Positions 7,683-58,705 of a DNA stretch of 64,000 nt are shown here, one piece after another (position 1 is the first letter of the stretch; every line of letters begins with the position of its first letter). Source of the stretch: Minisyncoccota bacterium (GTDB lineage Bacteria; Patescibacteriota; Minisyncoccia; UBA6257; 2-01-FULL-56-20); NCBI GenBank assembly GCA_022843285.1, contig JALHNY010000001.1:79128-143127 (forward strand), given 5' to 3'. The notes under the pieces were generated by a model. It saw only the letters and a program-made list of their open reading frames with translations, did no database searches and was not told the DNA's origin. The position numbers and the translations under genes are program-made.

Positions 7683-7685
7683 CCC

Positions 7686-8174: not shown

Positions 8175-8177
8175 CAG

Positions 8178-9284: not shown

Positions 9285-9285
9285 C

Positions 9286-9996: not shown

Positions 9997-10056
9997 GGGT
10001 GGCAGTATAGCTGACTCTTTAGCAAGAACTGCACCGCGCCCTGGTATACTTGCTGC
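9997..10056. promoter_or_regulatory. Divergent intergenic region with TATACT boxes on both strands (minus 10004-10009, plus 10045-10050) feeding leaderless starts
   Basis: cagcTATACTgccacccATG (minus) and ggTATACTtgctgcGTG (plus). Confidence 0.45.
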
Positions 10057-13506: not shown

Positions 13507-14315
13507 GGCACGGCTTCCTGCTCCTCCTCGCACTCACCGGGTGCGCGTGCCTGCTCACGCTGCCGCGGCGCGACTCAGCCCGCGCGCTCTCGCTCATCGA
13601 CGTGGGCCAGGGTGACGCCGCCTACATCCAGTCCGGCGGCGCCGGGCTGCTGGTCGACACGGGCGTCCCCGGGAGCTCCGCAGACCTCTCGGCACCCGGC
13701 CCGGTGAGCGCGCTCCTGGTTACGCACCTGGAGCGCGACCACGCGGGCGACGCGGCGAAGGTCATCGCGCGTGGCAACCTCGCCGCCGTTTTCTGGAACG
13801 GGCGCACCGATGCGCCGCTCCACGGCGATGTTGCGAGGGCAGCCGGTGCGGCTGGCGTGCCGCTCGTCGCGCTCGTGCCCGGTGACGTCCTCAGGGTGGG
13901 GGACGTGCGGCTCGAGGTCCTATCTCCCGGCCCCGGGTACCGGACGAGCGCGGACCACAACGACAGCTCTCTCGTCCTGCGCGCCGACTTTCCCGAGTTC
14001 TCGGCTCTCCTGACGGGGGACGCCCCCGCCGAGGTCGAGCGCCTCCTGCCGCCGGGTCCGGCGGACGTCGACGTCCTGAAGCTCGGCCACCACGGCTCCA
14101 AGACGGCCACCGGTGACCACCTCCTGGATCTCGCGACGCCCGCACTGGCCCTCGTGTCCGTCGGGGCGGGCAACCGCTACGGGCACCCCGCGCCCGAGGT
14201 GCTCGCGCGGCTCGAGGGGCGCGGCATCCCGCTCCTGCGCACGGACGAGCAGGGGACCATCACGGTGTTCTGGCGCGACGGCGAGCTGCGCGCCTCGACG
14301 TCGAGCGCGCGCTAG
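13503..14315 (+). CDS. comEC: ComEC C-terminal metallo-beta-lactamase (MBL) nuclease domain encoded as separate ORF (or frameshifted)
   Basis: TM helix then LIDVGQGDAAYI and LLVTHLERDHAGDA, KLGHHGSK MBL motifs; different frame from upstream ComEC ORF. Confidence 0.6.
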   Translation: MRHGFLLLLALTGCACLLTLPRRDSARALSLIDVGQGDAAYIQSGGAGLLVDTGVPGSSADLSAPGPVSALLVTHLERDHAGDAAKVIARGNLAAVFWNGRTDAPLHGDVARAAGAAGVPLVALVPGDVLRVGDVRLEVLSPGPGYRTSADHNDSSLVLRADFPEFSALLTGDAPAEVERLLPPGPADVDVLKLGHHGSKTATGDHLLDLATPALALVSVGAGNRYGHPAPEVLARLEGRGIPLLRTDEQGTITVFWRDGELRASTSSAR

Positions 14316-43439: not shown

Positions 43440-43699
43440 TGGCTGAGCGGAAGCTCTGGTTCAAGGCCAAGCGGTACGGCTGGGGTTGGCACCCAGCCTC
43501 GTGGCAGGGCTGGCTGTGTGTGGCTGCGTACGTCGCAGCCATTTGCACGTCCTCGTGGCTCATGGCTGTGCACGGCGCGTCTGATGACATCGTGCTGGGG
43601 CTCTCGTTCCTGGCTGCAATTTGCGCCACGGCGGCGCTGATTGCCATTTGCTGGGCGCGCGGAGAGGCTCCCCGCTGGCGCTGGGGCAAGAGAGCCTAG
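43439..43699 (+). CDS. Small 2-TM membrane protein (86 aa), Trp-rich
   Basis: GTG start overlapping upstream stop (TAGTG). Confidence 0.4.
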   Translation: MAERKLWFKAKRYGWGWHPASWQGWLCVAAYVAAICTSSWLMAVHGASDDIVLGLSFLAAICATAALIAICWARGEAPRWRWGKRA

Positions 43700-44319
43700 T
43701 ACAGCTCGATTCCCAGGGCCGCCATGATCTGTGCCCTGAAGAGCAGCGTCACGAGCATCGCGATCAGGAACGGGATGCCGAGCGTGGTGAGCTGCTCTTT
43801 GAAGACTGCCGTGCGCACCACCGAGACCACCACGAGCGCCACGCCCGCGAGCGGCAGGAGCACCACTACCCCCGGCCACCCAATGACGAACATTGCCAGC
43901 GTGGCGAGCACGATTTCTCCCTCGTCGAAGAAGCGATCCGTCCTTGCCCTGAGCACCCGCAGGAACACGTACCAGGCGACTGCCAGAATGGTAGCCAGGA
44001 TGAGCCCCATCCAGAACTGCTGGGTCACGTAGCCCACGAAGTACGAGATGGGCTGGTGCGGCGGGAGGAACAGCTGCGTGAAGCTCTCCTGCGTCCATAG
44101 CCAGTACTGGGCTGCCGTCTGGTACGCGGCGATGGAGGCCCTGGCCAGGAAGCCGAAGGCGAGGAGCACGACACCCGCGAAGTGCATCTCCTTGCCAGGC
44201 CTCAGGTACGCGTACGCCGCGACCATGCCCAGCGCCATGACCCACAGGACGTACGTGGGCCCATCCGCGAGGAGCCAGTTGGTGACGGGGTTGGTGAAGA
44301 AGGTCGCGTACATGTGCAC
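43696..44319 (-). CDS. Polytopic membrane protein, possibly A24 prepilin-peptidase-like
   Basis: ~6 TM; DEGEIVLATLAMFVIGW vaguely resembles A24 GGGDVKLLAALGAWLGW and GIPFLIA resembles PFGPFLAI; weak. Confidence 0.3.
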   Translation of the reverse strand: MHMYATFFTNPVTNWLLADGPTYVLWVMALGMVAAYAYLRPGKEMHFAGVVLLAFGFLARASIAAYQTAAQYWLWTQESFTQLFLPPHQPISYFVGYVTQQFWMGLILATILAVAWYVFLRVLRARTDRFFDEGEIVLATLAMFVIGWPGVVVLLPLAGVALVVVSVVRTAVFKEQLTTLGIPFLIAMLVTLLFRAQIMAALGIELY

Positions 44320-44330
44320 CCATTTTACAA

Positions 44331-44358
44331 CAAAAACGGACCCAGCAAGCTGGGTCCG
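44331..44358 (-). terminator. Rho-independent terminator downstream of 3D-domain gene
   Basis: minus strand CGGACCCAGcttgCTGGGTCCGTTTTTG. Confidence 0.5.
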
Positions 44359-44379
44359 AGTCTAGGGTTATGCGGCGGG

Positions 44380-44970
44380 CTACCTGGTCACGGAGACCAG
44401 TTCCGGCGCGACGTTTTCCATGTTCTTCTTTGCGTCTGCTTGGGCGACCACCTGCTCGAAGACAGAGGAGATGCTCTCGTCGTAGTCGAACGTCCACCAG
44501 CTCAGGGCGTTCTGGTCAAAGAACGCGCACTGATCTGGGGAGGGCTCGTCTAGGATGACGTACACGTCCTGGAACCTTTTGCCAAAGCGCAGAGCCTCGG
44601 CGTGCGTCCGAGCACGAATGTCGAACTGCACGATTCCCTGACGCGCCATCTTCCTCATCCCGCCGCCCGTGTCGTCCACGTTGCGGATGGGATTCGTTTT
44701 CAGACCCGGGATGAATACGCGAGAGCCGAATGGTACCAGCTGCGGTGCAGCTGCCACTCCATTAGGTTTTCGTGCATCGGTGCCTGTCGCGGTCTTCTTT
44801 CCGCCCGACCACTTCTCACAACAGATAGAGCATGTGCAGTAGCTGGTGAGCTTGGCGCGGACTTTGTAGACCTTCGGTGCAGGGAGCTGTGCTTCCTGCG
44901 CGGTTGCCTGAGAGACAAAAAGAAAATTAATGAAAATTATTACGAATAAGAAAGTTTTGTATTGGAACAA
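44380..44970 (-). CDS. Secreted 3D-domain protein (MltA C-terminal-like, YuiC-type cell-wall protein)
   Basis: AT-rich signal peptide MFQYKTFLFVIIFINFLFVSQATA; KLTSYCTCSICCEKW...GVAAAP...FGSRVFIPG...VDDTGGGM...VQFDIR 3D-domain pattern; TTG start with AGGAGG SD. Confidence 0.6.
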   Translation of the reverse strand: MFQYKTFLFVIIFINFLFVSQATAQEAQLPAPKVYKVRAKLTSYCTCSICCEKWSGGKKTATGTDARKPNGVAAAPQLVPFGSRVFIPGLKTNPIRNVDDTGGGMRKMARQGIVQFDIRARTHAEALRFGKRFQDVYVILDEPSPDQCAFFDQNALSWWTFDYDESISSVFEQVVAQADAKKNMENVAPELVSVTR

Positions 44971-45063: not shown

Positions 45064-46260
45064 CTAGTAAAACATGGCTTTTCCACGCATTCGCCGGTGA
45101 TTTTTGATGGCAAACCGGTGGGCCTCGTCCCTCACCCGGATCAGAGTTTCCACGCTCACGGTGTGGGGCACGACCCCGATGACGTCGTTCCTCTTGCGCT
45201 CAGTCCCCTTGGCTATGCCCACCACCGGAACCTTGACCCCCGCCTCGCGCAGGACGGCCTTCACCGCGTGCACCTGCCCCGCTCCCCCGTCGATGAGGAA
45301 GGCGTCGGGCAGAGGCCACTCGGGGTGCTTGAGCCTGCGGGTGATGACCTCGGCGAGCGACGCGTAGTCGTCCGGCTGGCTCACGCTCTTGATCTTGAAG
45401 AGGCGGTACGAGGCTTTCTCGGGCTCGCCGTTCACGAAGACCACCATGGACCCCACGGACTGGTTGCCCATGGTGTTGCTGATGTCGTACCCCTCCACCC
45501 GCACCGTGCGCTCGCGGTCCCGCTGCACCTCCTCGCGCGTGATGATGGAGGTGTCGTTCACGTGCTCCAGGGCAAATAGCGTGCGCTTAATCTTCTCAGC
45601 CTTCTCGAACTCGAGGCTTTTAGCCGCCGAGCTCATGCTGCGCCGGAGCTGCGCGATCACCTGCTTCTGCTTTCCGGCGAGAATGAGCTCGAGCTTCCGC
45701 ACCGCCGCGCGGTACATGCGCTTGTCCACGAGCCCCGCGCAGGTGCCGGGGCAGAGGCCGATCTGGTAATCGAAGCAGGGCCGGTCTCCTGGCTTGCCCG
45801 GCGCGTGGGTCGCGTACGGGATGATGCGGCGCAGGATGCGCATGCCCTCCCTTATCGGCCGGTCCGCCAGAAACGGCCCGTACCGCTTTCCCTGGATGGG
45901 CGTCCTGGCTCGCACCAGCTGGATGCGGGGAAAGTCCTCATCCGTGAACTCCACGTACGTGAAGCTCTTGTCGTCCTTCTGCTCGATGTTGTAGAACGGC
46001 AGGAACTCCTTGATGCGAGCTGCCTCGACGATGAGAGCCTCGAGCGCGGACCCCGCGTCCTCGTGGTCAACCCGGACCACCTCCCGCACGAGCGCGCTGA
46101 TTCGCGCGTCCTGGGGGCGCGTGAAGTAGCTCGAGACGCGCCGCTTGAGGTTGACCGCCTTCCCGACGTAGATAATGGTCCCCTTCGCGTTGCGCATGAG
46201 GTACACGCCCGGCGTCGAGGGTAGGTCCTCGTACAGGTGCGCCTTCGGGTTCCTCTCCAT
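45064..46260 (-). CDS. uvrC: Excinuclease ABC subunit C, short form lacking C-terminal (HhH)2
   Basis: GIY-YIG (PGVYLM...IYVGKAVNLKRRV), UvrC family region, RNase-H-like endonuclease domain; 398 aa; ORF-track N-terminal extension spurious. Confidence 0.8.
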   Translation of the reverse strand: MERNPKAHLYEDLPSTPGVYLMRNAKGTIIYVGKAVNLKRRVSSYFTRPQDARISALVREVVRVDHEDAGSALEALIVEAARIKEFLPFYNIEQKDDKSFTYVEFTDEDFPRIQLVRARTPIQGKRYGPFLADRPIREGMRILRRIIPYATHAPGKPGDRPCFDYQIGLCPGTCAGLVDKRMYRAAVRKLELILAGKQKQVIAQLRRSMSSAAKSLEFEKAEKIKRTLFALEHVNDTSIITREEVQRDRERTVRVEGYDISNTMGNQSVGSMVVFVNGEPEKASYRLFKIKSVSQPDDYASLAEVITRRLKHPEWPLPDAFLIDGGAGQVHAVKAVLREAGVKVPVVGIAKGTERKRNDVIGVVPHTVSVETLIRVRDEAHRFAIKNHRRMRGKAMFY

Positions 46261-46261
46261 G

Positions 46262-48820
46262 CTACGAGTGTGAGTCCAGGACCTTGCGCAGGTACGGTGC
46301 CGTGGCAGATCCCTTGACCTTGCTGATGTGTTCGGGCGTTCCGGCACCCATGAGCTTGCCGCCGCGCACGCCCCCGTCCGGGCCCAGGTCCACGACCCAG
46401 TCCGCAGACTTGATGACGTCCAGGTTGTGCTCGATGACCACCACCGTGTTGCCCCGCTCCACGAGGCGCTGCAGGACGTCGATGAGCTGCCGGACGTCAT
46501 CAAAGTGGAGACCCGTGGTCGGCTCGTCGAAGAGGTACAGCGTCCGACGCGTGTCGCGCTTGCCGAGCTCCGCGGCGAGCTTGATACGCTGCGCCTCACC
46601 CCCCGAGAGCGTCGTGGCGGACTGACCCAGCTCGAGGTAGCCGAGGCCGACGTCGTTGAGAATGGAGAGCCGATCGTGCAGCCACGGAATGTCCTTGAAG
46701 AACACGACCGCCTCCTCGATGGTGGTCCTCAGCACGTCGTAGATGTTCTTGCCGCGGTACTTCACCTCGAGCGTCTCGCGCTCGAAGCGCTTGCCCTTGC
46801 AGACCTCGCACGTGACGTAGACGGTGGGCAGGAAGTGCATCTCGATGGCGATGGTGCCGTGCCCCTCGCAGTTCTCGCAGCGGCCACCCTTCACGTTGAA
46901 ACTGAAGCGTCCCGGCTTGTACCCGCGCACGCGGGCATCATCGGTTGAGGCGAAGAGGTCGCGGATGTACGTCCACGCGCCCACGTAGGTGGCCGGGTTC
47001 GAGCGCGGCGTGCGCCCGATGGCAGCCTGGTCCACGGACACGACGCGGTTCACGTTCTCCGCGCCGAAGATCGCCCCGGCGGCGCCCTCGCGGTAGCTGG
47101 CACCGTTGAACTTGTTCGCCAGGTGCTTGTAGAGCACGTCGTACACGAGCGTGCTCTTGCCCGATCCCGAGACGCCGGTCACGACCGTGAACCTGGAAAC
47201 CGGGACCTCGACGGTGATGCCGTCCAGGTTGTTCTCTGTGGCGTTCTTGATCGTGATGAACTTTCCGCTCGGCTTCACCGGGCGGCGCGCGTTCGGGAGT
47301 TCGACCCGCCTGGTGCCGCGCAGGTACTGGAGCGTCAGCGAGTCCTGCTTCTTGTCTTTCAGCAGGTCGGGCATGGGGCCGATTGCCGTGATCTCACCCC
47401 CGTGCACGCCCGCGCCGGGTCCTATGTCCACGAGGAAATCGGCGGCGTGGATCGTGTCCTCGTCGTGCTCCACGACCAGCACCGTGTTGCCGAGGTCGCG
47501 CAGCTCCAGGAGCGTCGCGATCAGCTTCTCGTTGTCGCGCTGGTGCAGGCCAATGGTCGGCTCATCGAGGATGTAGAGCGTGCCGACGAGGCGCGACCCG
47601 ATCTGGCTCGCGAGGCGGATGCGCTGGGCCTCGCCGCCGGAGAGCGTTCCCGCCTTGCGATCCAGCGTCAGGTACCCGAGCCCGACGTCGTCCATGAACT
47701 GGAGGCGCGACGTAATCTCGCGGAGCGGCACCTCCGCAATCTGGAAACGCCCGCTGCCCGCTTCCTTCTGCTTCGCGGACTCTTTCTGGAGCTTGTCGCG
47801 GAGCTCGCGGAAGAACTTCAGTGATGACTCGACGGAGTCCTCGGTGACGCCCACGACGTTGCGCCCATCGATGAGCACGGAGAGCGCCTCGCGCTTCAGG
47901 CGCTTGCCCGCGCACATCGGGCACGGCTTCTCCGAGTAGGCAGACTCGGTGCCCAGGCCATGGCACTCCTCGCATGCCCCGTACGGGCTGTTGAAGGAGA
48001 AGAGGCGGGGCTCGATCTCGGGGAAGGAGAAGCCGTCATTGGGACAGGTGAACTGCGCGGAGAGCGAGGTCTCCTCGTCCGTGATGATGGTGACGACGTC
48101 GTTGCCGTACTTGAGCGCGGATTCGATGGCTTCGGCGAGGCGCAGGCGGTTGTCCTTGTCCTCGAAGTTCAGGAGGCCGGGAATGCGGTCCACCACGAGG
48201 TCGATGTCGTGCGTGCCGTACCGGGAGAGCTGGATGCGGTTCCTGAGGCTCTGGAGCTTGCCGTCCACGCGCACCTCGGAGAACCCGGCGTTCAGGAAGT
48301 CGTAGAGCATCTGGTAGTGCTCCCCCTTCCTCCCGCGCACCACGGGCGCGAGCACCAGAATGTTCGTACCCTTCTCGTTGCGCCTCGCGATGTCCACGGC
48401 GATGTCCACGATCTGCTCCCGCGTGAGCTTCTTGATCTGCGTCCCGCACTCGGGGCAGTGCGGGACCCCGAGGCGCGCGAAGAGGACGCGCAGGTAGTCG
48501 TAAATCTCGGTGATGGTGGCCACCGTGGACCGCGGGTTGCCGGAGTGGCTCTTCTGGTCGATTGAGATGGCCGGCGAGAGGCCGTCAATCTCATCGACGT
48601 CCGGCTTGTCCAGCCTCCCGAGGAACTGGCGCGCGTACGCGGAGAGCGACTCGATGTACCTGCGCTGCCCCTCGGCGAAGATGGTGTCGAACGCGAGGGA
48701 TGACTTCCCAGAGCCGGAAAGCCCCGTGAACACGACGAGCTTGTCGCGCGGGATCTCGAAGGACACGTTCTTGAGGTTGTGCTCTCGGGCGCCAGAAACG
48801 GCGATGCGGTTCTTCTGCAT
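46262..48820 (-). CDS. uvrA: Excinuclease ABC subunit A (compact, 852 aa)
   Basis: [38 protein letters not shown]-terminus, two ABC modules ([10 protein letters not shown]), Zn-finger Cys clusters. Confidence 0.9.
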
Positions 48821-48901
48821 CGGGGGTAGTGGGCCGAGTATAGCTCATTTGCGAGCGGCTGGGTACCCAAAAGAGCTTGAAAACAGGGGGCTTCTAGCCC
48901 G

Positions 48902-48930
48902 TTGACAGACTGCACCCGGGAGAGTAGTAT
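48902..48930 (+). promoter_or_regulatory. Canonical sigma70 promoter TTGACA-N17-TAGTAT
   Basis: gTTGACAgactgcacccgggagagTAGTATctcggtAcg. Confidence 0.5.
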
Positions 48931-48936
48931 CTCGGT

Positions 48937-48996
48937 ACGCTTTTAATTTATTAGGAGCGTCAGAGACACCGCCGCAAGGCGGTGTCTTCTGTTTTT
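48937..48996 (+). ncRNA. Candidate ~60-nt small RNA / attenuator leader (promoter-to-terminator unit) upstream of 49029 gene
   Basis: bounded by promoter above and hairpin terminator AGAGACACCGCCgcaaGGCGGTGTCTTCTGTTTTT (48962-48996); no ORF; not matched to a known riboswitch. Confidence 0.3.
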
Positions 48997-49028
48997 AGTT
49001 TTCTGATTTCTGGAATAGGAGCTGACTG

Positions 49029-49364
49029 ATGCAAAGAAAAGTCCGACTTGCCGGTGGGATCACGGCTGTGAACCCCAGAACCCTGCTGCTCGCCGACGCC
49101 CGTGAAGAGCTCGGCGCCAAGTGCCAGTTCATAGATGAGCGTGAGCTCGCCGTCATGGAGAGCGACCTCTCCGAGAACCACCTCGCCCGCGCAGACCTCA
49201 TTGCCCGGCTCAAGGTGAGCGAGGGTGCAGCCCTGCTCGTAACCCTCCCAGCTGAGGGTGCCATCGAGTTCGTTCGCGCGCTGCACGTGCGGCCGAGCGG
49301 TTCCACCCGCGTCCCGCTGTACCGCGTCACCAAAAACACGTTCGTCCTGGTGCGCCGCACCTGA
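49029..49364 (+). CDS. Hypothetical protein (111 aa)
   Basis: SD aggagctga; unknown. Confidence 0.4.
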   Translation: MQRKVRLAGGITAVNPRTLLLADAREELGAKCQFIDERELAVMESDLSENHLARADLIARLKVSEGAALLVTLPAEGAIEFVRALHVRPSGSTRVPLYRVTKNTFVLVRRT

Positions 49365-49401
49365 GTTCATTCCGACGCCCGCACCCCGTGCGGGCGTTGC
49401 C

Positions 49402-49848
49402 CTACCTCGTCAGGGAAATGGTAGCTCCCAGCTCTGCTCCGGGCGCGAAGATGGTGACCTGCCCCGTGCTGCTCGCCCTGCTGATCACGTACCCGGTGTC
49501 GTACTGCCCCATGGAGAGGAAGTGCGCGCCGGCGAGCTGCGGGTCAAACGGCATCGCGGTCAGGAAGGTCGGAATCAGGCACGGCGCGATGTCGTACCCC
49601 CCGCTGGACCTCATCTGCGTCGGCGTCTCCGGAATGGGGCCCGAGGTGCACGTGAACGTGTTGCTCCCCGACTCGGCGATGCTCTGGCGCACGGAGTTCA
49701 TGATGGCCTGCAGGTGCAGATTGCGCTGCGTGTTGCGCGCGCCGGCCACCTGGCCGAACGGGTTGATGGCAATGAGCACGACCCCTCCCAGGATGGCCAG
49801 GAGCGCCATGCCGACGACAATCTCCGCAACGGTTACTCCCCTCCTCAT
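49402..49848 (-). CDS. Type IV pilin (prepilin-type N-terminal cleavage/methylation domain)
   Basis: MRRG|VTVAEIVVGMALLAILGGVVL with Glu+5; last gene of pilus operon. Confidence 0.7.
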   Translation of the reverse strand: MRRGVTVAEIVVGMALLAILGGVVLIAINPFGQVAGARNTQRNLHLQAIMNSVRQSIAESGSNTFTCTSGPIPETPTQMRSSGGYDIAPCLIPTFLTAMPFDPQLAGAHFLSMGQYDTGYVISRASSTGQVTIFAPGAELGATISLTR

Positions 49849-49862
49849 GCCCTGAGTGTACA

Positions 49863-51296
49863 TCAGCGGACCTCTTCCCAGGAGAGGAGCTCGTACTGGT
49901 CTGACGCCAGCGGGAAGCCGGGCGGCGGCCCGTACAGCAAATTCGCGTCGTAGGTCAGGTTGCGGGTCTGGTACCCGGTGCCGTCCGTGTACGCGAACCC
50001 GTACCGGCCGTTGGTCACGAGCGTGCCGTAGCTCGTGAGCGTGGTGCGCACGTGGTTGGGCGAGCAGCGGTTGCTCCCGCCGCCGGGCCCCTGGTAGTAG
50101 TAGCGCCCCACGCGGCCGTTCTGGGCTACGAGCGCGGCATCAATGCGCAGGTCGTTCTCGCTGAAGAGCCCCACGTTGACGTTGTTCTGCGCGATGAGGG
50201 CCACCGCCGCAGACCCATCGTAGGCGCCGTACGTCAGGTCCGCGTTCACCGTGATGCTGGTGTACGTCGAGCTGTTCACGGGGAACCGCCCGGAGCCCAC
50301 GGTGATGTGCCGGTTGCTCACCGTCCCGCTGACCCAGATGTGGTCCTCCACGAAGAAGATGCCGTTCGCGGGCAGCGCGCCATCGTCGGTCACCTGCGTC
50401 CGGTTGTTGACGCTCCACGTCCCCCAGCCCGCCTGGGAGGCCGAGTTGCTGCACCCGCTCGGCGCGCTGCGAAGGGACGTCACCCGGTACAGGTCGTACG
50501 TGCCGTTCGCATTGAACACGAGCTCGTACCCGGAAGAGCCAGAGTTGGCGACGTAAACGCCGCTCGCCTGGGCGTCCGTGCGGAGCTGCGAGAGGTCCTG
50601 GGTGATTCCCGCGAAGTCTATGGCGGGGAGGGGGAACTGCCTGCCCCCGCCGAACACGTCCGCCCGGTCTGGCAGCGCCCCGGGCGGGAGCGGATCCGTG
50701 GACCCGAGGTGCGTGTGCACGCCGTACTCCACGCCGCCGGAGTGGTCTGGATCATCGTACGTCGCCTGCGCGCTCTGCACGGTGTTGTGCGCGTAGCCGT
50801 CGAAACGAATGCCACCGTTGCTGAACACCTCGCCGAAGATCTCCGTCCCCTCTCCGAAGCGCATGGCAGAGTTTGCCGCCACGGCGTACCGCGCGAGGGA
50901 CGGCTTGCCGAGGAGCACCTCAATCGTCTTCTCGGTCGTGCTGTCCCCGAGCACGGAACCGGTGCTGCGGATGCGCACCATGGACGTGCCGGCCACCGGC
51001 TCAATCTCGAGCTCGAAAGATCCGAGGTGCCGCCCGTCCCTCGCGTAGTACTGGTGGACGTACGGACCGGGTGCGCCCGTGCCGTCCTGGAAGTCTTCCG
51101 GGGCGTGCGCCAGGTGCCAGCGGTAGTACTCGATGCCAGCCTCGGCAATGGAGAACGACAGGTTCCGGTTGAGGCTCCTCGTGGAGAGCTGCAGGAACGA
51201 GACGGCGAGGAACGTGAAACCAGTGATGAGCACCACGACCACCGCGGAGAGCACGATGACCTGGAGCGAGACCTGACCCTGCTTGCGGCTAATCAT
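49863..51296 (-). CDS. PilX-N-like pilus-associated protein (minor pilin/tip factor candidate)
   Basis: N-terminal QVIVLSAVVVVLITGFTFLAVSFLQLS hydrophobic segment typical of PilX_N; large beta-rich domain. Confidence 0.5.
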   Translation of the reverse strand: MISRKQGQVSLQVIVLSAVVVVLITGFTFLAVSFLQLSTRSLNRNLSFSIAEAGIEYYRWHLAHAPEDFQDGTGAPGPYVHQYYARDGRHLGSFELEIEPVAGTSMVRIRSTGSVLGDSTTEKTIEVLLGKPSLARYAVAANSAMRFGEGTEIFGEVFSNGGIRFDGYAHNTVQSAQATYDDPDHSGGVEYGVHTHLGSTDPLPPGALPDRADVFGGGRQFPLPAIDFAGITQDLSQLRTDAQASGVYVANSGSSGYELVFNANGTYDLYRVTSLRSAPSGCSNSASQAGWGTWSVNNRTQVTDDGALPANGIFFVEDHIWVSGTVSNRHITVGSGRFPVNSSTYTSITVNADLTYGAYDGSAAVALIAQNNVNVGLFSENDLRIDAALVAQNGRVGRYYYQGPGGGSNRCSPNHVRTTLTSYGTLVTNGRYGFAYTDGTGYQTRNLTYDANLLYGPPPGFPLASDQYELLSWEEVR

Positions 51297-51894
51297 CTCT
51301 GAGGTTTCTGATGCTGATGAGCTGGCTGACGTACGCCGGCCGGGGCGCCTCGCGCGGGCGCACGTCCACGTAGAGCGTCACGCGGACCAGTCGCACGGCG
51401 CTGGCCAGGGTACTCGTCGGGGCCAGCGGATCTTCCACACCGGTGTAGTCATCGCCGTAGTACGTGAACACGTTGGAGGAGGTCGTCCGGGTGAGGTTGC
51501 TCACGAGCGTGGAGACCGTCTCCGATGACGAGGAGTACGCGAGCGGCGTGCCGGATGGCTTCGTGACACCCCGGTCCAGCGTCGTGGTGCCCACGGTGTA
51601 GCGGATGCGCTCGAAGAGGCCGTCGCTGTCCACGTCGCTGTAGAAGATGAGAGTGCTCGTCGTCGCGGCCTCCACGGGGTACGCACCCTGGTTGCTGGGC
51701 GCCGCCGAGCGAATCTCGGTGACCATCTGCTCCATGGCGCGGTCGATGTCCTGGCGAGACTGGAGCTTCTGGCTGACGAGGTTACTGAGCGTGTCCACGT
51801 TGGTGCGCAGCGTCGCCACCACGAAGATCAGCACCGTGAACACCGCCGCTGAGATCAGCACCTCGATGACGGAGAATCCGGACCTCTGGCTCAT
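51289..51894 (-). CDS. Pseudopilin / minor pilin (prepilin-type N-terminus)
   Basis: MSQRSG|FSVIEVLISAAVFTVLIFVV with Glu+5. Confidence 0.65.
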   Translation of the reverse strand: MSQRSGFSVIEVLISAAVFTVLIFVVATLRTNVDTLSNLVSQKLQSRQDIDRAMEQMVTEIRSAAPSNQGAYPVEAATTSTLIFYSDVDSDGLFERIRYTVGTTTLDRGVTKPSGTPLAYSSSSETVSTLVSNLTRTTSSNVFTYYGDDYTGVEDPLAPTSTLASAVRLVRVTLYVDVRPREAPRPAYVSQLISIRNLRDD

Positions 51895-53615
51895 GATGGG
51901 CTCATGGTAACGGTCACGGACTGCCACCCGCTACCGACCGTCGTCGTCGCGGACGCGGCGGAGTACCCCCCGGCGGCCGCGTCCACGGTGTACGACCCAG
52001 CCGCCAGGTTCTGGAACAGGCGCTGGCCCGGCGGCACGCAGGGACCAGCAAACGTCAGGCGCACCTCGCTGACCGCTGGCGTCGTGAGCTCGTCCGCAGT
52101 TTCCAGGTACGCGCGGTACCGCACGTACCGCTTCCCCGCCGCAGATCCCGCGACCGCTGCGGGAGAGGTGAAGTACGATGATCCGCTCCCGTCCGGACCC
52201 ACGAAGCTCCAGCTGCCGCCATCGTCGCTGCCCGCGACCTGGAAGCGCACGGAGCCGGAGGCATCCCAGTCGAAGAACGTGGCACCCGCCGGCGTCCCCC
52301 CGAGGTCGAGGGTCGCGGACTCGAGCGTCGCGACCGAAGAGGTCGCGTAGGGACCCCCAGCGGGGCTCATGCGGATCTCGCCGCTCGATGTTTCGGTGCC
52401 CGAGAGCGATGAGTACGAAGCCGGGTTGGACCAGTCAGACTCGGCGTGGACGGCGGCGCCAGCTGCCCCGGCAGGGTCTGACGCGCCCGGCCCGTTCAGC
52501 GTGAAGCTCGCGGCAACCGGGCTACCCGTCACGGCATCGACGGCGGTAACCAGCAGGGACGGCGCCCCTGACGGCGCGAGCACGAAGCGGAACGGCTGGT
52601 CCTCATCGGGGGCCAGCGCGAAGGGCGAGAGCGGGACCGTCCCGGCTAGGTCCATGGATCCGGTGTACGTGGCGGTGTACGCGTCCCACTCGACGCCGGA
52701 GACGGTCGTCTCCCCTCCCGCGGCTGTCGAGCCGCTGAAGGTGTACTTGAGAACGTCCGGGGCGGTGCCCACGAGCTTGGTGCCCGCCAGCGTGAACGGC
52801 TGGCTCGCCACCGCCTCGCAGCGGTACCCCGAGCTCGCCACCTCAACGCTGCCCACCCGGTCAATCGCGAAGCTCAGCACCGTCACGGCTTGGGAGCCCA
52901 CCGTCGCGTGCGGCTTCACGGGGTTCGGGTTGCCGGGCGCGCCAACCGGGTAGGTGCCCTCGCTCGAGTACCCAGCCTTGGTCACCGTGACGTGGTACGC
53001 CTGGGTGCTGGTCGGGACGTCCACCAGCTGCAGCAGGCCGTTGGTGCCGGTGATGTCACTGAAGTTAATTGCCGGCGAAACGGCCGAGTTGGTAATCGTG
53101 ACCTCCGCAGACGGCACCGGCTGCCCGTTGGCATCGAACACCGAGATGAAGAGCGAGCCGTTCTGCGAGGCGCTCTCCAGTCCCTGCGGGGCCACGGTGG
53201 TGGTAATCGATACCGGCGTGAAGCGGGGGCACGTGGGGCAGGTCACGCTGAACTCGACGAGCTTGTAGTCAGCCGGCGCGGTGTCCCCGGGGCTGCCACC
53301 CGCGGTTCCGTCGAACGGGTCATCCACGTTGCGCACCGCCGTCTGCACGATGAACTCGGCGCCGTCCCAGGAGACCTGCTCCGACTGTTCCAGGATGCCC
53401 GAGGGGATGCCGCCGATGACACCCACCTGCTCGTAGCTCAGGTTCCTCACGAGCTCCACCTTCTGGTTCAGGACGTTGGAGGCCGCGCGGCGCAGCTCGT
53501 AGTTCACGGCCGTATCGACGATGGAGAAGTAGACGAGGAAGATGCCGCCGAACAGGACGGCAATGATGCCGATTGCCAGAATGAGATCGATGAGGCTGAA
53601 GCCACGTCTGCTCAT
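51891..53615 (-). CDS. Giant pilin-like protein (574 aa) with prepilin N-terminus and Thr/Ser/Gly-rich beta domain (adhesin-like)
   Basis: MSRRG|FSLIDLILAIGIIAVLFGGIFL (Asp+5), long low-complexity T/S/G/A-rich body. Confidence 0.6.
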   Translation of the reverse strand: MSRRGFSLIDLILAIGIIAVLFGGIFLVYFSIVDTAVNYELRRAASNVLNQKVELVRNLSYEQVGVIGGIPSGILEQSEQVSWDGAEFIVQTAVRNVDDPFDGTAGGSPGDTAPADYKLVEFSVTCPTCPRFTPVSITTTVAPQGLESASQNGSLFISVFDANGQPVPSAEVTITNSAVSPAINFSDITGTNGLLQLVDVPTSTQAYHVTVTKAGYSSEGTYPVGAPGNPNPVKPHATVGSQAVTVLSFAIDRVGSVEVASSGYRCEAVASQPFTLAGTKLVGTAPDVLKYTFSGSTAAGGETTVSGVEWDAYTATYTGSMDLAGTVPLSPFALAPDEDQPFRFVLAPSGAPSLLVTAVDAVTGSPVAASFTLNGPGASDPAGAAGAAVHAESDWSNPASYSSLSGTETSSGEIRMSPAGGPYATSSVATLESATLDLGGTPAGATFFDWDASGSVRFQVAGSDDGGSWSFVGPDGSGSSYFTSPAAVAGSAAGKRYVRYRAYLETADELTTPAVSEVRLTFAGPCVPPGQRLFQNLAAGSYTVDAAAGGYSAASATTTVGSGWQSVTVTMSPS

Positions 53616-53619
53616 GCCG

Positions 53620-54690
53620 CTACCCTATTCCCTGCGACAGCGAGTAGATCGGCAGGATGATGGAGAGCGCCACGAATCCCACGAGGAGCCCCATGCCCAC
53701 CAGCAGGATGGGCTCCAGGAGCGAGGTCAGCGTCTTGAGCGCCTCCTCGGTCTCCTCGGTGTAGTGCCCCGAGAGGTAGATCAGGTTGTCCTCGAGGTTG
53801 CCCGTCCCCTCGCCGATCGTGACGATGCCGCTCATGAGGGGCGGGAACTGCTTCGGGTGCTTCTCGAGGTACGTGCCGAGGGTCTCACCGCGCCTGATGG
53901 CGTCCGCGGCGCCCACGATGATGTCCCGGTACACCAGGTTGGTGAACGTACTGCTGGTGATGGTGATGCCCTCCACGATGTGCACGCCGCTCTTGAGCAG
54001 CAGCCCGAGGACGCGGCTGAAGTTCGCCACGTTGACGTTCACCATGAGGTGGCCGAGGACCGGCACCGCGAGCAGGGAGCGGTGCAGCGCCTTGCGCAGG
54101 AAGCGCACGCGCGTGAAGAGTACCCTGCCCCCGATAGCCGCCGCCGCAGTGCCGAGCACGGCGTACAGGCCGTACGCGCGGGTGAAGTCGAGGAACCCGA
54201 TGAGGATGCGGGTGGTGAGCGGCAGCTCCACGTTGAAGCCGGAGAGCACCGGCAAAATCTTCGGGAACACGAAGAACGTGAGGAAGCTCACGACGGCAAT
54301 GGTGGCGAGCAGGAGCACGATCGGGTAGATAAGCGCCGAGCGGACCTTCGCCTGAAGCTCCTTGCTCTTCTTAATTTCCTCCGCGAGGTACGAGAGGTTG
54401 TCCGCGAGCGTGCCGCTGGTCTCCCCAACGCGCACGATGTTCGTGAAGAAGTCCCCGAAGAGCTGGGGGAACCGCCCGAGGCTGTCCGCGAGGAACTTAC
54501 CCGCGTTGATGTCCTCGATCACGATGTCTATGACCTTCGAGAGCGTCTTCGAGAACTTCTGCTTGCGCAGCATGCGCAGGCCCTCGAGGAGCGGGAGGCC
54601 CGCACGCACGACCATGGCGAGGTGGCGCGCGAAGTTGATCTTCTCCTGCGCCTTCAGCCTGGCAAAGAGCATGCGCGGCGAGCTGGCCAT
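53620..54690 (-). CDS. pilC: Type IV pilus assembly platform protein PilC (GspF family)
   Basis: two T2SSF repeats, 3 TM, ...GETSGTLADNL / ...GEGTGNLEDNL pairs. Confidence 0.85.
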   Translation of the reverse strand: MASSPRMLFARLKAQEKINFARHLAMVVRAGLPLLEGLRMLRKQKFSKTLSKVIDIVIEDINAGKFLADSLGRFPQLFGDFFTNIVRVGETSGTLADNLSYLAEEIKKSKELQAKVRSALIYPIVLLLATIAVVSFLTFFVFPKILPVLSGFNVELPLTTRILIGFLDFTRAYGLYAVLGTAAAAIGGRVLFTRVRFLRKALHRSLLAVPVLGHLMVNVNVANFSRVLGLLLKSGVHIVEGITITSSTFTNLVYRDIIVGAADAIRRGETLGTYLEKHPKQFPPLMSGIVTIGEGTGNLEDNLIYLSGHYTEETEEALKTLTSLLEPILLVGMGLLVGFVALSIILPIYSLSQGIG

Positions 54691-54691
54691 C

Positions 54692-55954
54692 CTACTCGTA
54701 GATGAGGCGAATGACCTCCTCGATGGACGTGACGCCCGCGGCCGCCTTCTCGACGCCGTCTCGCATCATGGTCTTCATGCCCTCCTTCACGGCCTGCTGC
54801 TTGATGTCCGCAGCCGATGCCCGCTCGAGGACGAGCTTCTGGATGCCCGGTGTCATGGGCAGCACCTCGCGGATGCCGATGCGGCCGCGGAACCCCGAGT
54901 GGTGGCACTGGTCGCAGCCGGGCGAGGTCCACAGCTGCTCGAGGTGCTCGTCGTCCGCGTCGTCGCCGAGAATCTCCATGACGCCCTTGCGCTCCTTCGC
55001 GTCCACGGGGCGCACCACCTTGCAGTCCGGGCAGAGCGTGCGCACGAGGCGCTGGCCCATGGCGACGTTGACCGTGCTCGCGACCAGGAACGGGGGCACG
55101 CCCATGTCCATGAGGCGCGGGAAGGTGGTTGCCGCGTCGTTGGTGTGCAGCGTGGAGAGCACGAGGTGGCCGGTCAGCGCGGCGTTCACCGCGATGCCCG
55201 CGGTCTCCTGGTCGCGGATTTCACCGACCATCAGGATGTTCGGATCCTGGCGCAGAATGGAGCGGAGTCCAGACGCGAACGTGAAGCCGACCTGCGCGTT
55301 GGTCTGCATTTGCGTCACGCCGGGCAGCGCGTACTCGATGGGGTCCTCAATGGTGATGATGGAGCGGTCCGCCTGGTTGAGCTCCTTGAGAATGGTGTAC
55401 AGCGTCGTGGTCTTCCCGGAGCCGGTGGGGCCGTTTGCGAGAATCATGCCGTACGGGCGCTTGATCGCTTTCCGCACGCGCTCCAGCTGGTCCGGTGGGA
55501 AGCCGAGCGAGTCGAGGGTGAACGCCTGGTTCTCGGCGAGGACGCGGAGCACCGCGTTCTCGCCGTGGTACGTCGGCGCGATGGAGACGCGCACCGCGAC
55601 CGTCTCGTCCCCTATCTTCACCTTGAGGCGGCCGTCCTGCGGCACCAGGTGCTCGTCCGTGCGGAGACCGCACATGACCTTGATGCGGCTGATGAGCTCG
55701 TCGTGGAGAGACATCGGAATGGGCATCTCCTCGAGCGCGTCCTGGAGCATGCCGTCTATGCGGAAGCGCAGGCGCACCGATTCCTCGGTGGGCTCGATGT
55801 GCACGTCCGAAGTTTTCGCCGTGTACGCGTACTCGAGGATCTGGTCCACGAGGCTGACCACGCTCACGTCCGTGGCATCTTTGCCTATCGTCTCCTTAAT
55901 CGCGGCGCGCACCGCATCGAGGTCTCTCATGTGCCGTAAGTATAGCAGGCTCAT
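54692..55954 (-). CDS. pilB: Type IV pilus extension ATPase PilB/GspE family (short form without N-terminal N1 domain)
   Basis: Walker A GPTGSGKTTT, Asp/His boxes, tetracysteine CPDC...CDQC zinc motif characteristic of PilB/GspE. Confidence 0.85.
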   Translation of the reverse strand: MSLLYLRHMRDLDAVRAAIKETIGKDATDVSVVSLVDQILEYAYTAKTSDVHIEPTEESVRLRFRIDGMLQDALEEMPIPMSLHDELISRIKVMCGLRTDEHLVPQDGRLKVKIGDETVAVRVSIAPTYHGENAVLRVLAENQAFTLDSLGFPPDQLERVRKAIKRPYGMILANGPTGSGKTTTLYTILKELNQADRSIITIEDPIEYALPGVTQMQTNAQVGFTFASGLRSILRQDPNILMVGEIRDQETAGIAVNAALTGHLVLSTLHTNDAATTFPRLMDMGVPPFLVASTVNVAMGQRLVRTLCPDCKVVRPVDAKERKGVMEILGDDADDEHLEQLWTSPGCDQCHHSGFRGRIGIREVLPMTPGIQKLVLERASAADIKQQAVKEGMKTMMRDGVEKAAAGVTSIEEVIRLIYE

Positions 55955-56042
55955 GGCTCAAAACGTGCCCTGGACTTACGCGTGAAACGGCGGTATAGCT
56001 TGGCGGAGCTTTTTGAGAAATTTACAAGCAAGGAGACAAGAA

Positions 56043-56588
56043 ATGGACTACAAGTACCTCGTCCTGTTCCCCATCAGGGGAGCTCAGGGCGAACACCTCG
56101 TTCAGGTCATGGACCGCATGGCTGAGCTAACGGGGCTTCCCGCCCCGCACACCCAGCTCCCGCCGCACGTGACCTTTCACAAGCCGATTGCCGGCATCAA
56201 TGAGGAGACCGTGCTGAACCTGGTCCAGAGCGTCGCGCTCCAGACCAAACAGACCCGCCTCACCTACGAGGCGCACCCGTTCTTCTTCGGGAAGCAGTAC
56301 GTCGTCGTCCGCATCAACCCGACCATCGAGCTCGCGAGCTTCTGGAGCGAGGTCAGCAACCTCATCACCAAGGTTCCCGAGTACGAGCACGGTCCGTTTG
56401 ACCGGGACAACACGCTGCACATCACGCTAGCCCGCAAGACCAGCTCGGTGTTCGATAAGGTCTGGGGAGAACTCAGCGCCATGGTGCTCACACCCGAAGA
56501 GGTGACCTTCGATTCCGTGGACCTGTACCGCAAGCCGCTCACGGGCGGAGCGTGGGAGCAGGTGCAATCTCTGCCGATTCCTACCTAG
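56043..56588 (+). CDS. 2H phosphoesterase superfamily protein (LigT/2'-5' RNA ligase-like)
   Basis: two H-x-T motifs (PHVTFH and LHITLA); SD aaggaga upstream of ATG 56043. Confidence 0.55.
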   Translation: MDYKYLVLFPIRGAQGEHLVQVMDRMAELTGLPAPHTQLPPHVTFHKPIAGINEETVLNLVQSVALQTKQTRLTYEAHPFFFGKQYVVVRINPTIELASFWSEVSNLITKVPEYEHGPFDRDNTLHITLARKTSSVFDKVWGELSAMVLTPEEVTFDSVDLYRKPLTGGAWEQVQSLPIPT

Positions 56589-56635
56589 CGGATTTCACCG
56601 TCCGACTGCGCCCCCGCTCCCGCGGGGGTTTCGCT

Positions 56636-58705
<2,070 letters not shown>

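Follow-up and report, generated by a model that had tools for sequence, protein, structure and literature searches.

Positions 49402-55954 of the window (the whole 64-kb stretch of DNA that was analysed) very probably hold the core gene set of a monoderm Parcubacteria type IV pilus in which a PilX/ComZ-like trio (the 574-aa, 201-aa and 477-aa proteins) primes assembly and forms the cap. On the best reading the operon supplies the motor, the platform and the filament subunit alongside this three-protein tip set, which most likely initiates the pilus and sits as a cap at its tip. A type IV pilus operon with PilB, PilC and four prepilin-type genes had been proposed from the sequence, and is borne out by T2SSE and T2SSF matches and by the prepilin cleavage sites. 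Six closely packed ORFs were confirmed on the minus strand, followed by a hairpin (a slash marks the cleavage site in each leader):

54692..55954, minus strand, pilB: 420-aa PilB/GspE-family assembly ATPase, short form without MshEN
53620..54690, minus strand, pilC: 356-aa PilC/GspF platform protein
51891..53615, minus strand: 574-aa modular pilin, leader MSRRG/FSLID
51289..51894, minus strand: 201-aa minor pilin, canonical leader MSQRSG/FSVIE
49863..51296, minus strand: 477-aa predicted tip pilin of PilX/ComZ type, leader MISRKQG/QVSLQ
49402..49848, minus strand: 148-aa major-pilin-like protein, leader MRRG/VTVAE
49375..49397, no strand: GC-rich hairpin separating the last pilin gene from a convergent 111-aa ORF

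Operon structure

The gap is 1 nt between pilB and pilC and 4 nt between pilC and the 574-aa gene, the start of the 201-aa gene overlaps the stop of the 574-aa gene in an ATGA, and the 201-aa and 477-aa genes overlap by 8 nt. The maximal ORF of the last pilin gene extends to 49863 (153 aa) and overlaps the 477-aa gene by 1 nt; with the second ATG as start, at 49848, there is a gap of 14 nt and the protein has 148 aa, as in the orthologue at related locus L001, which is the most likely length. GC3 of the six called frames is 0.87-0.95 in a window of 65% GC, so these minus-strand frames were taken as the true ones; the plus-strand ORFs lying over the whole operon were rejected as shadow frames, as high GC yields many long spurious ORFs. 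The hairpin, with a folding energy of -20.7 kcal/mol (z=-2.6 versus shuffles), could act as a terminator, but it has no U-tract and does not fit the T-run terminator consensus.

Motor ATPase and platform

The 54692-55954 ORF matches Pfam T2SSE (E=6e-126), and the Walker A motif GPTGSGKTT, the His box and the tetracysteine CPDC...CDQC are all readable. Orthologues of 577-593 aa carry MshEN (PF05157), for which the window's 420-aa ORF is too short, in agreement with the short, tetracysteine-bearing PilB described earlier. The 53620-54690 ORF matches Pfam T2SSF twice (E=4e-55). NCBIfam scores were 497 bits (GspE) and 481 bits (PilB) for the ATPase, both under the equivalog cut-offs, and 285 bits (GspF) and 244 bits (PilC) for the platform protein, again under the cut-offs. 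The ComG equivalog models were not reached either (ComGA 249 bits, cut-off 300; ComGB 135, cut-off 240).

Prepilin-type proteins

Loss of the processing site among homologues had been named beforehand as a refuting observation; G(-1) is kept in all four families, in 75/78, 66/66, 69/69 and 38/38 members of the 574, 201, 477 and 148 families, respectively. Position +5 is acidic in 77/77 members of the 574 family (D in 60, E in 17) and is E in 66/66 and 38/38 members of the 201 and 148 families. The 477 family is the sole one of the four without an acidic +5, mostly having Q, as expected of a PilX/GspK-type tip pilin.

The AlphaFold2 model of the 574-aa protein (pLDDT 91.2) is folded throughout, with an alpha1 helix (8-58), a pilin sheet (about 78-141) and then tandem beta-sandwich domains, one of which, at 158-220, is CarboxypepD_reg-like (Pfam PF13620, E=3e-7). 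Structure prediction had been suggested as a check for an adhesin fold, and Foldseek found the model to resemble tandem CnaB/Ig-like arrays, e.g. TIE (6fwv, 3e-10), PitA and SpaA. The sequence-only reading had an enormous Thr/Ser/Gly-rich body; it is indeed rich in these residues, though in Ala and Val as well, and with that pLDDT over folded modules it was rejected as low-complexity. More than 530 homologues are about 570-620 aa long. No lectin, vWA or other recognisable binding domain was found in the large pilins by Pfam search.

The 201-aa protein, whose gene directly precedes the PilX-like 477-aa gene, has weak N-terminal matches to GspJ (E=0.004) and GspI (NCBIfam), and N_methyl is found in 57/66 members of its family. 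This protein, described earlier as a pseudopilin, has 201 aa (ATG at 51894) and not the 212 aa of the maximal ORF. From gene order, size and weak N-terminal matches, the 574-aa and 201-aa proteins would occupy the GspI/GspH and GspJ/PilW positions, respectively.

The 477-aa protein looks like ComZ, the DNA-binding tip pilin of Thermus, judging by its AlphaFold2 model (pLDDT 90.6). The model has a 60-residue alpha1 (5-64), four pilin strands (79-130), a long beta-rich solenoid-like insert and a final strand (469-475), the insertion point being deduced from the order of secondary-structure elements. Its best Foldseek match in the PDB is ComZ (6qvi, E=1.9e-10, prob 1.00), and ice-binding/DUF3494 solenoids rank next, a pairing of resemblances also reported for ComZ (PMC6561018) and cyanobacterial PilX (bioRxiv 10.64898/2026.02.12.705559). 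TM-scores to ComZ are low (0.32) because the comparison treats two domains and a long helix as a single body, and the 477-family profile found no ComZ sequences at E<=1; the likeness is structural only. The earlier label of PilX_N-like stands for the PilX likeness, given the ComZ match and a PilX_N hit above the gathering score in another family member (P0355), but Pfam PilX_N does not match the window's own protein. The profile search returned 1377 clusters at 50% identity, and some family members have beta-propeller, PKD, Big_2 or PA14 modules fused to them.

The 148-aa protein looks like the major pilin: a profile of its family hits solved major pilins at their N-termini (Geobacter PilA, 3e-8; also PilA and PilE1), and its orthologues share KGFTLIELLVVIGIIAILAGV and two conserved Cys. 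It had been called major-pilin-like at 149 aa, of which the identity is upheld while the length is most likely 148 aa. Several relatives have 1-2 tandem copies of the gene.

Distribution and conservation

The 477-aa protein is encoded in at least 585 species genomes, and those that are informatively named all belong to the Parcubacteria group of CPR. In a genome scan, the 574-201-477 block was present in order at 79/80 related loci; at the 80th (L026) the contig begins within the block and the 477 gene alone is present. The three genes are mutually within 200 nt at 71/79 loci, and of the 63 loci with enough sequence upstream, 54 have PilB and PilC there in the same orientation. The block is thus a fixed unit across the Parcubacteria group. 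Locus L001 has the identical six-gene order and shares the uvrB/uvrA/uvrC flanks, locus L029 has PilM (PF11104, 1e-49) immediately after the trio, and at 11 loci a PilM homologue is found no more than 10 kb from the trio. Median identity is 54% for the 477-aa protein, 51% for the ATPase and 39% for the 574-aa protein; the 477-aa protein is the most conserved of the operon, exceeding even the motor ATPase, and it and the 574-aa protein are conserved along their full length across lineages.

Rest of the window

As noted earlier, pilT, pilM/N/O and a prepilin peptidase (pilD) are missing from the operon; none of these was found within the 64-kb window, and neither was a second T2SSE ATPase, a second PilC or a further prepilin-motif ORF. 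Processing, retraction and the alignment complex would therefore rest on genes outside the window. The operon has no secretin or GspC/L/M. The ORF at 43696-44319, put forward as a weak A24-like peptidase candidate, is not supported, having no Pfam/NCBIfam match, no GxGD motif and only 4 homologues in 5.8 billion proteins. A ComEC gene is located at 12343-14315 (Competence PF03772, 2e-38; Lactamase_B).

Comparison with known systems

The order here, (H/I)-J-K and then the major pilin, parallels Thermus thermophilus pilA1-pilA2-pilA3-comZ-pilA4, likewise minor pilins, a large tip pilin and then the major pilin (PMC6561018). ComZ (PDB 6QVI), like the predicted 477-aa protein, has a triangular ice-binding-protein-like beta-solenoid within a GspK-like pilin fold (PMC6561018), and both have a non-canonical leader without the acidic +5. 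However, the 477-aa protein has no detectable sequence similarity to ComZ and is acidic, its DNA binding being putative; the cell here most likely has one membrane only, as CPR bacteria are reported to have, and no secretin, and there are two further minor pilins rather than three, one being the multi-domain 574-aa protein. Cyanobacterial PilX-PilV-PilW-FimT are likewise conserved, co-encoded minor pilins and proposed assembly primers, and their PilX, like the 477-aa protein, has a solenoid before the last strand and is a proposed tip plug replacing PilY1 (bioRxiv 10.64898/2026.02.12.705559). The set here differs in having three proteins instead of four and in lying immediately behind pilB-pilC, and its FimT/PilV-position member is longer by about 430 residues of beta-sandwich domains.

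Streptococcus sanguinis PilB and PilC share with the 574-aa protein a class III signal peptide, a small pilin module and extra folded modules, and such modular pilins are expected at the filament tip (PMC8179133). In contrast, what follows the pilin module here is about four generic beta-sandwiches, none of them recognised as a binding domain, and the protein is a universal conserved operon component rather than an accessory. Saccharibacteria TM7x T4P-1 and T4P-2 (PilX1, PilX2) are also type IV pili of CPR bacteria; they likewise have small major pilins and large tip minor pilins, the latter with no predicted PilD signal. Their accessory domains, however, are a beta-jelly roll and a seven-bladed propeller (PMC11623550), versus a predicted solenoid body here, and TM7x belongs to another CPR class. 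GspH-GspI-GspJ-GspK and FimU-PilV-PilW-PilX likewise have an E5 pilin of about 200 aa directly before a large pilin without E5, the GspK/PilX cap subunit lacks the acidic +5 as the 477-aa protein does, and both sets have a presumed priming/tip complex role, as has the trio. The proteins here reached none of the specific family models of these sets, and the set has one member fewer (three, not four) and comes with no PilY1 and no secretin.

Proposed mechanism and alternatives

CPR cells probably lack an outer membrane, according to published microscopy. The leaders would be cut after the conserved Gly by a prepilin peptidase encoded elsewhere, and the 477-aa protein, with no acidic +5 and, like ComZ and cyanobacterial PilX, a bulky beta-solenoid set in its pilin fold, would enter the filament first and form its cap. 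The 201-aa (GspJ/PilW position) and 574-aa (GspI/GspH position) proteins would pack below the cap via their N-terminal helices, giving a priming complex on PilC beneath which PilB would power polymerisation of the 148-aa major pilin. The resulting tip would display a rigid solenoid and a beta-sandwich stalk of about 430 residues.

What this tip might bind divides two alternatives. The 574-aa protein could be an adhesin of a host- or surface-attachment pilus, its beta-sandwich stalk reaching from the tip to the host surface, which has an appreciable chance of being right though the odds are against it. Its CnaB/Ig-like and CarboxypepD_reg-like domains resemble Gram-positive pilus adhesin stalks, the grafting of binding modules onto pilins is an established adhesion strategy (PMC8179133), the large tip minor pilin PilX2 is required for efficient host binding in Saccharibacteria (PMC11623550), and some 477-family members carry the added modules listed above. 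However, Pfam recognised no binding domain, and both large pilins are conserved end to end over lineages with presumably different hosts (39% and 54%, versus 51% for the ATPase), which argues against host-specific binding. Such conservation would be better suited by a conserved tip ligand (DNA or a common surface polymer) and so also favours a dedicated DNA-capture (competence) pilus, in which a ComZ-like 477-aa tip binds DNA and retraction or disassembly hands it to ComEC; if so, the DNA would supply a cell unable to make nucleotides. This is rather unlikely, even though the best structural match is a DNA-binding competence pilin (PMC6561018), ComEC is in the same window and type IV pili and ComEC are widely paired in CPR genomes (PMC6744442). 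The soluble parts are strongly acidic (net charge -15 for the 477-aa and -28 for the 574-aa protein; family medians -10 and -18), PilT is absent from the window, and ComGA and ComGB fall below their cut-offs. Furthermore, cyanobacteria have the solenoid in both competence-type and motility-type PilX, where it is a proposed general tip plug (bioRxiv 10.64898/2026.02.12.705559), so the fold by itself does not specify DNA binding.

Top NCBIfam scores to GspE and GspF, the short PilB without MshEN and the lack of a nearby PilT would fit a short pseudopilus, either type II secretion-like or Com-like, that stays inside the cell wall and pushes proteins or DNA through it. This is very improbable, since the GspE, GspF, ComGA and ComGB scores are all under equivalog cut-offs, the operon has no secretin or GspC/L/M, orthologous operons have full-length PilB with MshEN, and PilM as the next gene after the trio or no more than 10 kb away, the neighbouring 148-aa protein belongs to the classical T4a type of major pilin, and pili have been seen on ultrasmall CPR cells (PMC6744442, PMC9763046). 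Long spurious ORFs do abound here through high GC, the plus-strand ORFs over the operon among them, but that the large ORFs are themselves frame artefacts, a doubt raised by the sequence-only reading, is refuted to near certainty by the GC3 of the called frames, full-length homologues of matching length that number in the hundreds to thousands, two confident structure models and a gene order conserved among relatives.

Operon structure and surroundings

ORF calling placed six consecutive genes on the minus strand, pilB and pilC followed by genes for pilins of 574, 201, 477 and 148 aa. The features of the region are:

49402-55954, minus strand: six-gene type IV pilus operon
51891-53615, minus strand: 574-aa pilin gene of the operon
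45064-58705: the operon embedded between uvrB and uvrA-uvrC
49029-49364, plus strand: convergent 111-aa ORF between uvrA and the last pilin gene
43696-44970, minus strand: two lineage-restricted genes downstream of uvrC
43696-44319: the one of these two genes that encodes a 207-aa membrane protein

The window has a GC content of about 65% and contains long spurious ORFs in all frames. The six called frames have GC3 values of 0.87-0.95, which is the coding-frame signature in the window, and they are therefore taken as real despite the spurious ORFs. The pilB and pilC genes are separated by 1 nt, and pilC and the 574-aa gene by 4 nt; the 574- and 201-aa genes have an ATGA in common, the 201- and 477-aa genes overlap by 8 nt, and the 477-aa gene overlaps the last gene by 1 nt, or is followed by a 14-nt gap if the second ATG is the start. 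The six-gene operon proposed in the sequence-only reading is thus borne out by its ORFs, its GC3 values and its tight junctions, and it contains only the six genes described. It is bounded downstream by uvrA and upstream by a divergent 2'-5' RNA ligase-like gene 58 nt away, followed by uvrB. A GC-rich hairpin lies 3' of the last pilin gene (-20.7 kcal/mol, z=-2.6), and a scan of this high-GC region for promoter and terminator consensus sequences returned nothing meaningful.

There is no obvious functional reason for the position of the pilus operon between uvrB and uvrA-uvrC. The same arrangement recurs in locus L001, a relative 62-77% identical, and uvrB also adjoins the operon in two further loci (L037 and L057). 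The near-identical contigs L084 and L085 share the called 111-aa ORF (GC3 of 0.78), which is absent from L001. GC3 reaches 0.97 within the window, and the GC content of about 65% for the window as a whole seems high for a CPR/Parcubacteria genome compared with typical CPR values.

Motor and platform proteins

The 420-aa pilB product matches T2SSE (PF00437, E=6e-126) in Pfam, and its translation contains the Walker A motif GPTGSGKTT, TGHLVLSTLHTND, a visible His box and the tetracysteine CPDC...CDQC, so that the features of a PilB/GspE-family ATPase (Walker A, Asp and His boxes, zinc tetracysteine) are all present. Two NCBIfam models score it nearly equally, GspE with 497 bits (cut-off 630) and PilB with 481 bits, both below the equivalog cut-offs. 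The alignments begin at position 98 of GspE and position 170 of PilB; the window PilB therefore has no N-terminal domain. The 356-aa PilC has the two T2SSF stretches (PF00482, E=4e-55) of a platform protein, and scored below the NCBIfam equivalog cut-off for GspF (285 vs 424 bits). The competence equivalogs ComGA (249 vs 300 bits) and ComGB (135 vs 240 bits) were likewise not reached, and the six-gene operon holds no secretin or GspC, GspL or GspM of a type II secretion set.

PilB orthologues in related loci fall into two length classes, a short one of 405-460 aa without MshEN and a long one of 576-593 aa with MshEN. The short form was considered as a marker of a separate Com-like system and rejected, as it is orthologous to the long form (46-64% identity) and occupies the same slot ahead of the same trio of pilin genes (574-201-477). 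Since both forms take the same position before the same genes, the short PilB is an orthologue shortened by the loss of a domain, not part of a different system. Among loci L008 to L083, those with a short PilB usually have a major pilin gene directly after the trio; those with a long PilB usually have none, with exceptions such as L009, L010 and L048.

Components not found in the window

Neither the operon nor the remainder of the 64-kb window contains PilT, PilD, PilM/N/O, a second PilB or PilC, or a further prepilin gene, which extends to the whole window the earlier remark that the operon lacks pilT, pilM/N/O and a prepilin peptidase. In the window, and in 80 related loci as far as 10 kb from the operon, no A24 prepilin peptidase turned up; a scan there for GxGD membrane proteins returned only phosphoglycerate kinases and other unrelated ORFs. 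No second T2SSE ATPase was found near the operon in related loci. PilD is reported to be widespread in CPR bacteria (PMC6744442).

A weak A24-like candidate had been proposed at 43696-44319, a suggestion that is not supported: at E<=0.1 neither Pfam nor NCBIfam assigns the product to a family, and its sequence lacks a GxGD motif. It has only four true homologues, all in close relatives and all without Pfam domains, and is a lineage-restricted, multi-pass membrane protein of 207 aa. The pair of genes to which it belongs is syntenic in L001; the other product, a secreted protein of 196 aa, has a weak match to the 3D domain (E=0.04) and could be a cell-wall lytic enzyme.

Prepilin leaders and smaller pilins

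Class III signal peptides (Gly at -1, hydrophobic alpha1N, acidic +5) are found in the 574-, 201- and 148-aa families.

Table. Conservation of prepilin processing sites in the four pilin families (the +5 tally of the 477-aa family covers the 69 sequences with a residue at +5, of 71 aligned).
Family; Gly at -1; residue at +5
574 aa; 75/78; acidic in 77/77 (Asp 60, Glu 17)
201 aa; 66/66; Glu in 66/66
477 aa; 69/69; not conserved (Gln 39, Glu 7, others)
148 aa; 38/38; Glu in 38/38

The sequence-only reading had named loss of the processing site in homologues as the observation that would count against these pilins, and Gly at -1 is instead kept in all four families. In type II secretion systems and T4a pili, the topmost subunit of the filament, which is of the GspK/PilX type, characteristically has a non-acidic +5 residue, and the 477-aa family, with its mostly Gln or other residues, is classed as lacking the acidic +5. 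The residue after the Gly is Gln in 59 of its members. In the 574-aa family, mature position 5 is most often Asp; Glu is near-universal at this position of mature pilins.

Pfam N_methyl matches the window pilins weakly; within the 201-aa family, 57 of 66 members have it. The 201-aa protein itself aligns with TIGR01711 (gspJ) over its N-terminal 63 residues only (E=0.004, 17 bits, cut-off 64.85), and the profile of its family finds only N-terminal pilin matches in the PDB. In orthologues of the 148-aa protein the N-terminus, KGFTLIELLVVIGIIAILAGV, is that of a classical major pilin, and two cysteines are conserved; the family profile aligns with the N-termini of solved major pilins. The 148-aa genes are sometimes duplicated in tandem among orthologues.

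The modular pilin

The AlphaFold2 model of the 574-aa protein (pLDDT 91.2) opens with a pilin helix alpha1 (8-58), continues with a four-stranded sheet and then runs through several beta-sandwich domains, one of which is CarboxypepD_reg-like (PF13620, E=3e-7). A disordered, low-complexity body was considered and rejected, since the model is confident and conservation is even over the whole length. Foldseek aligned the whole protein with the TIE protein of Bacillus anthracis and with Gram-positive pilus proteins built of tandem CnaB/Ig-like arrays; we take these matches between predicted and known structures to reflect a common type of fold, not homology. Modular pilins have been described, with CPR examples among them, and the 574-aa protein, with its conserved leader, pilin module and extra folded modules, fits that definition (PMC8179133). 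Conservation peaks at an Asp-rich loop of the pilin module (VRNxDDPFDG...DTAPADYK) and at the first sandwich domain, where a putative calcium site may lie.

The proposed tip pilin

The 477-aa protein is modeled with similar confidence (pLDDT 90.6) as a 60-residue N-terminal helix alpha1 (5-64), four strands (79-130), and a long body that is mostly beta structure and includes one short helix, ending in a last strand at 469-475. The best solved match of this model in Foldseek is Thermus thermophilus ComZ (E=1.9e-10, probability 1.00), followed by ice-binding proteins; a viral structure library yielded weak DUF3494 matches only and no tailspike-like enzymes. The predicted architecture is that of a ComZ/PilX-type pilin, in which an ice-binding-like beta-solenoid would be inserted into the pilin alpha1 and sheet before the last strand, the insertion point being taken from the order of secondary structure and not from coordinates. 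ComZ is a competence-associated tip pilin with a GspK-like pilin fold and a triangular ice-binding-like beta-solenoid between its last two strands, and it binds DNA and the neighboring minor pilin PilA2 (PMC6561018). A 2026 preprint reports the ComZ-type architecture in all cyanobacterial PilX proteins, where the solenoid is proposed as a tip plug in place of PilY1 (bioRxiv 10.64898/2026.02.12.705559).

The 477-aa protein resembles ComZ in predicted fold but has no detectable sequence similarity to it: the 477-family profile found no ComZ chain at E<=1 among all PDB sequences, and PDB sequence searches with the 574- and 477-family profiles returned nothing useful. The first description had called this protein PilX_N-like. 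The window protein has no match to PilX_N (PF14341) at E<=0.1, whereas a divergent family member, P0355, scores 27.6 bits (cut-off 25.5) and is named a PilX N-terminal domain protein at NCBI, which supports the assignment transitively.

Some members of the 477-aa family, among them P0261, P0387 and P0257, are much longer (865-1445 aa) and are fused to a DUF5122 beta-propeller or to Big_2, PKD, PA14 or DUF4215 modules, and the 574-aa family includes enlarged members of 911 aa (L025) and 684 aa (L056); the tip proteins thus accept extra modules in some lineages.

Distribution and gene order

Full-length homologues number more than 530 (570-620 aa) for the 574-aa protein and more than 3600 for the 477-aa protein, with 1377 clusters at 50% identity found by the 477-family profile among 1.84 billion representatives. 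A scan of one genome per species found the 477-aa protein in at least 585 species, and all those informatively named belong to the Parcubacteria group, including Lipton-, Kaiser-, Taylor-, Yanofsky-, Harrison-, Wolfe-, Campbell-, Colwell-, Giovannoni-, Nomura- and Veblenbacteria. The order 574-201-477 is present in 79 of 80 fetched loci, and the contig of the 80th (L026) starts inside the block and carries the 477 gene only. The three genes lie within 200 nt of one another in 71 of the 79 loci, and PilB and PilC are upstream on the same strand in 54 of the 63 loci with enough upstream sequence.

What follows the trio is variable: one or two major-pilin genes (as in the window), housekeeping genes, or PilM and two small proteins. 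In L029 the gene immediately behind the trio encodes PilM (PF11104, 1e-49), and 11 related loci have PilM homologues no more than 10 kb from the trio. In L001 (GCA_964484655.1), the closest of the long relatives, the six genes recur in matching surroundings (uvrB/uvrA/uvrC/196-aa/207-aa/Bcp).

The operon encodes a motor, a platform protein and four pilins with conserved cleavage sites, and its trio is fixed. Type IV pili are widespread in CPR bacteria (PMC6744442; PMC9763046), and solenoid-bearing PilX/ComZ tip pilins are already known in Thermus and cyanobacteria (PMC6561018; bioRxiv 10.64898/2026.02.12.705559). The literature searched held no Patescibacteria paper linking to or mentioning ComZ-like pilins; in it, a three-member set fixed across the Parcubacteria group, its ComZ-like cap, its second large member (a universal, multi-domain modular pilin) and the cap's standing as the best conserved gene of the operon all appear to be undescribed. 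With its structural link to ComZ and cyanobacterial PilX, the 477-aa family widens the range of solenoid-capped pilus tips to include the CPR. The trio beside its pilus motor offers a concrete group-wide marker and experimental target. Among uncultivated bacteria, Parcubacteria belong to the most abundant, and little is known of how they attach to and feed on other cells.

Proposed assembly and possible functions

Leaders would be removed by a prepilin peptidase encoded elsewhere. The 477-aa protein would be incorporated first and cap the filament, with the 201- and 574-aa pilins packed under it as a priming complex, the former probably in the GspJ/PilW position and the latter in the GspI/GspH position of the canonical H-I-J-K order. 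PilB would then polymerize the 148-aa pilin beneath this complex, and the tip would display the solenoid and a long beta-sandwich stalk.

Table. Median identity of operon proteins to the window proteins across the 58 loci carrying all genes.
Protein; median identity
477-aa tip pilin; 54%
PilB; 51%
148-aa pilin; 43%
574-aa pilin; 39%
PilC; 39%
201-aa pilin; 36%

Minor pilins normally rank with the fastest-evolving proteins of a pilus; it is therefore unusual for a tip pilin to exceed the ATPase in conservation. Its invariant residues include the run EYYRWHLAH at the end of the helix, H61, H64, D68, D71, H81, D182, D184, H194 and two cysteines. The His/Asp set falls around the predicted junction of pilin and solenoid, where it may form a cluster; on an unlikely reading, it would fit a metal-dependent ligand-binding or catalytic site.

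The resemblance to ComZ and the presence of a ComEC gene within the window point to a pilus for DNA capture. However, both large pilins are acidic (net -15 for the 477-aa and -28 for the 574-aa protein), which is mildly against simple DNA binding, and the solenoid occurs in competence-type and motility-type cyanobacterial PilX alike, which tells against reading it as a DNA receptor. The beta-sandwich stalk of the 574-aa protein and a precedent in Saccharibacteria (PMC11623550) point to attachment, although the strong conservation of the large pilins speaks against adhesion specific to a host. Higher conservation in a surface-exposed tip protein than in the ATPase suggests that the ligand is a common one; once identified, it would tell what the cells take from their surroundings. 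We regard it as a long shot that the tip of the Parcubacteria pilus is a conserved functional site, and not a mere plug, that may capture or cut a universal substrate; if so, nucleic acid or a common cell-wall polymer would be the candidate substrate, and the tip would be a lineage-wide nutrient-scavenging device.

Other genes of the window

12343-14315, plus strand: ComEC gene, apparently split over two ORFs
10057-11766, plus strand: VirD4/TraG-like type IV secretion coupling protein (PF10412/PF02534, about 1e-9)
6477-7682, 7686-8174 and 8178-9284, plus strand: three ORFs without a Pfam family

The two ComEC ORFs are in different frames and overlap by 213 nt in a region of 74.6% GC. The Competence domain (PF03772, 2e-38) is in ORF 12343-13506 and the Lactamase_B domain (PF00753) in ORF 13293-14315, and the split could reflect a frameshift, a misassembly or a pair of overlapping genes. 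The three ORFs without a Pfam family lie ahead of the VirD4/TraG-like gene, and together (6477-11766) they are possible components of the conjugation-like system of monoderm type that has been described in Patescibacteria (PMC12102498).
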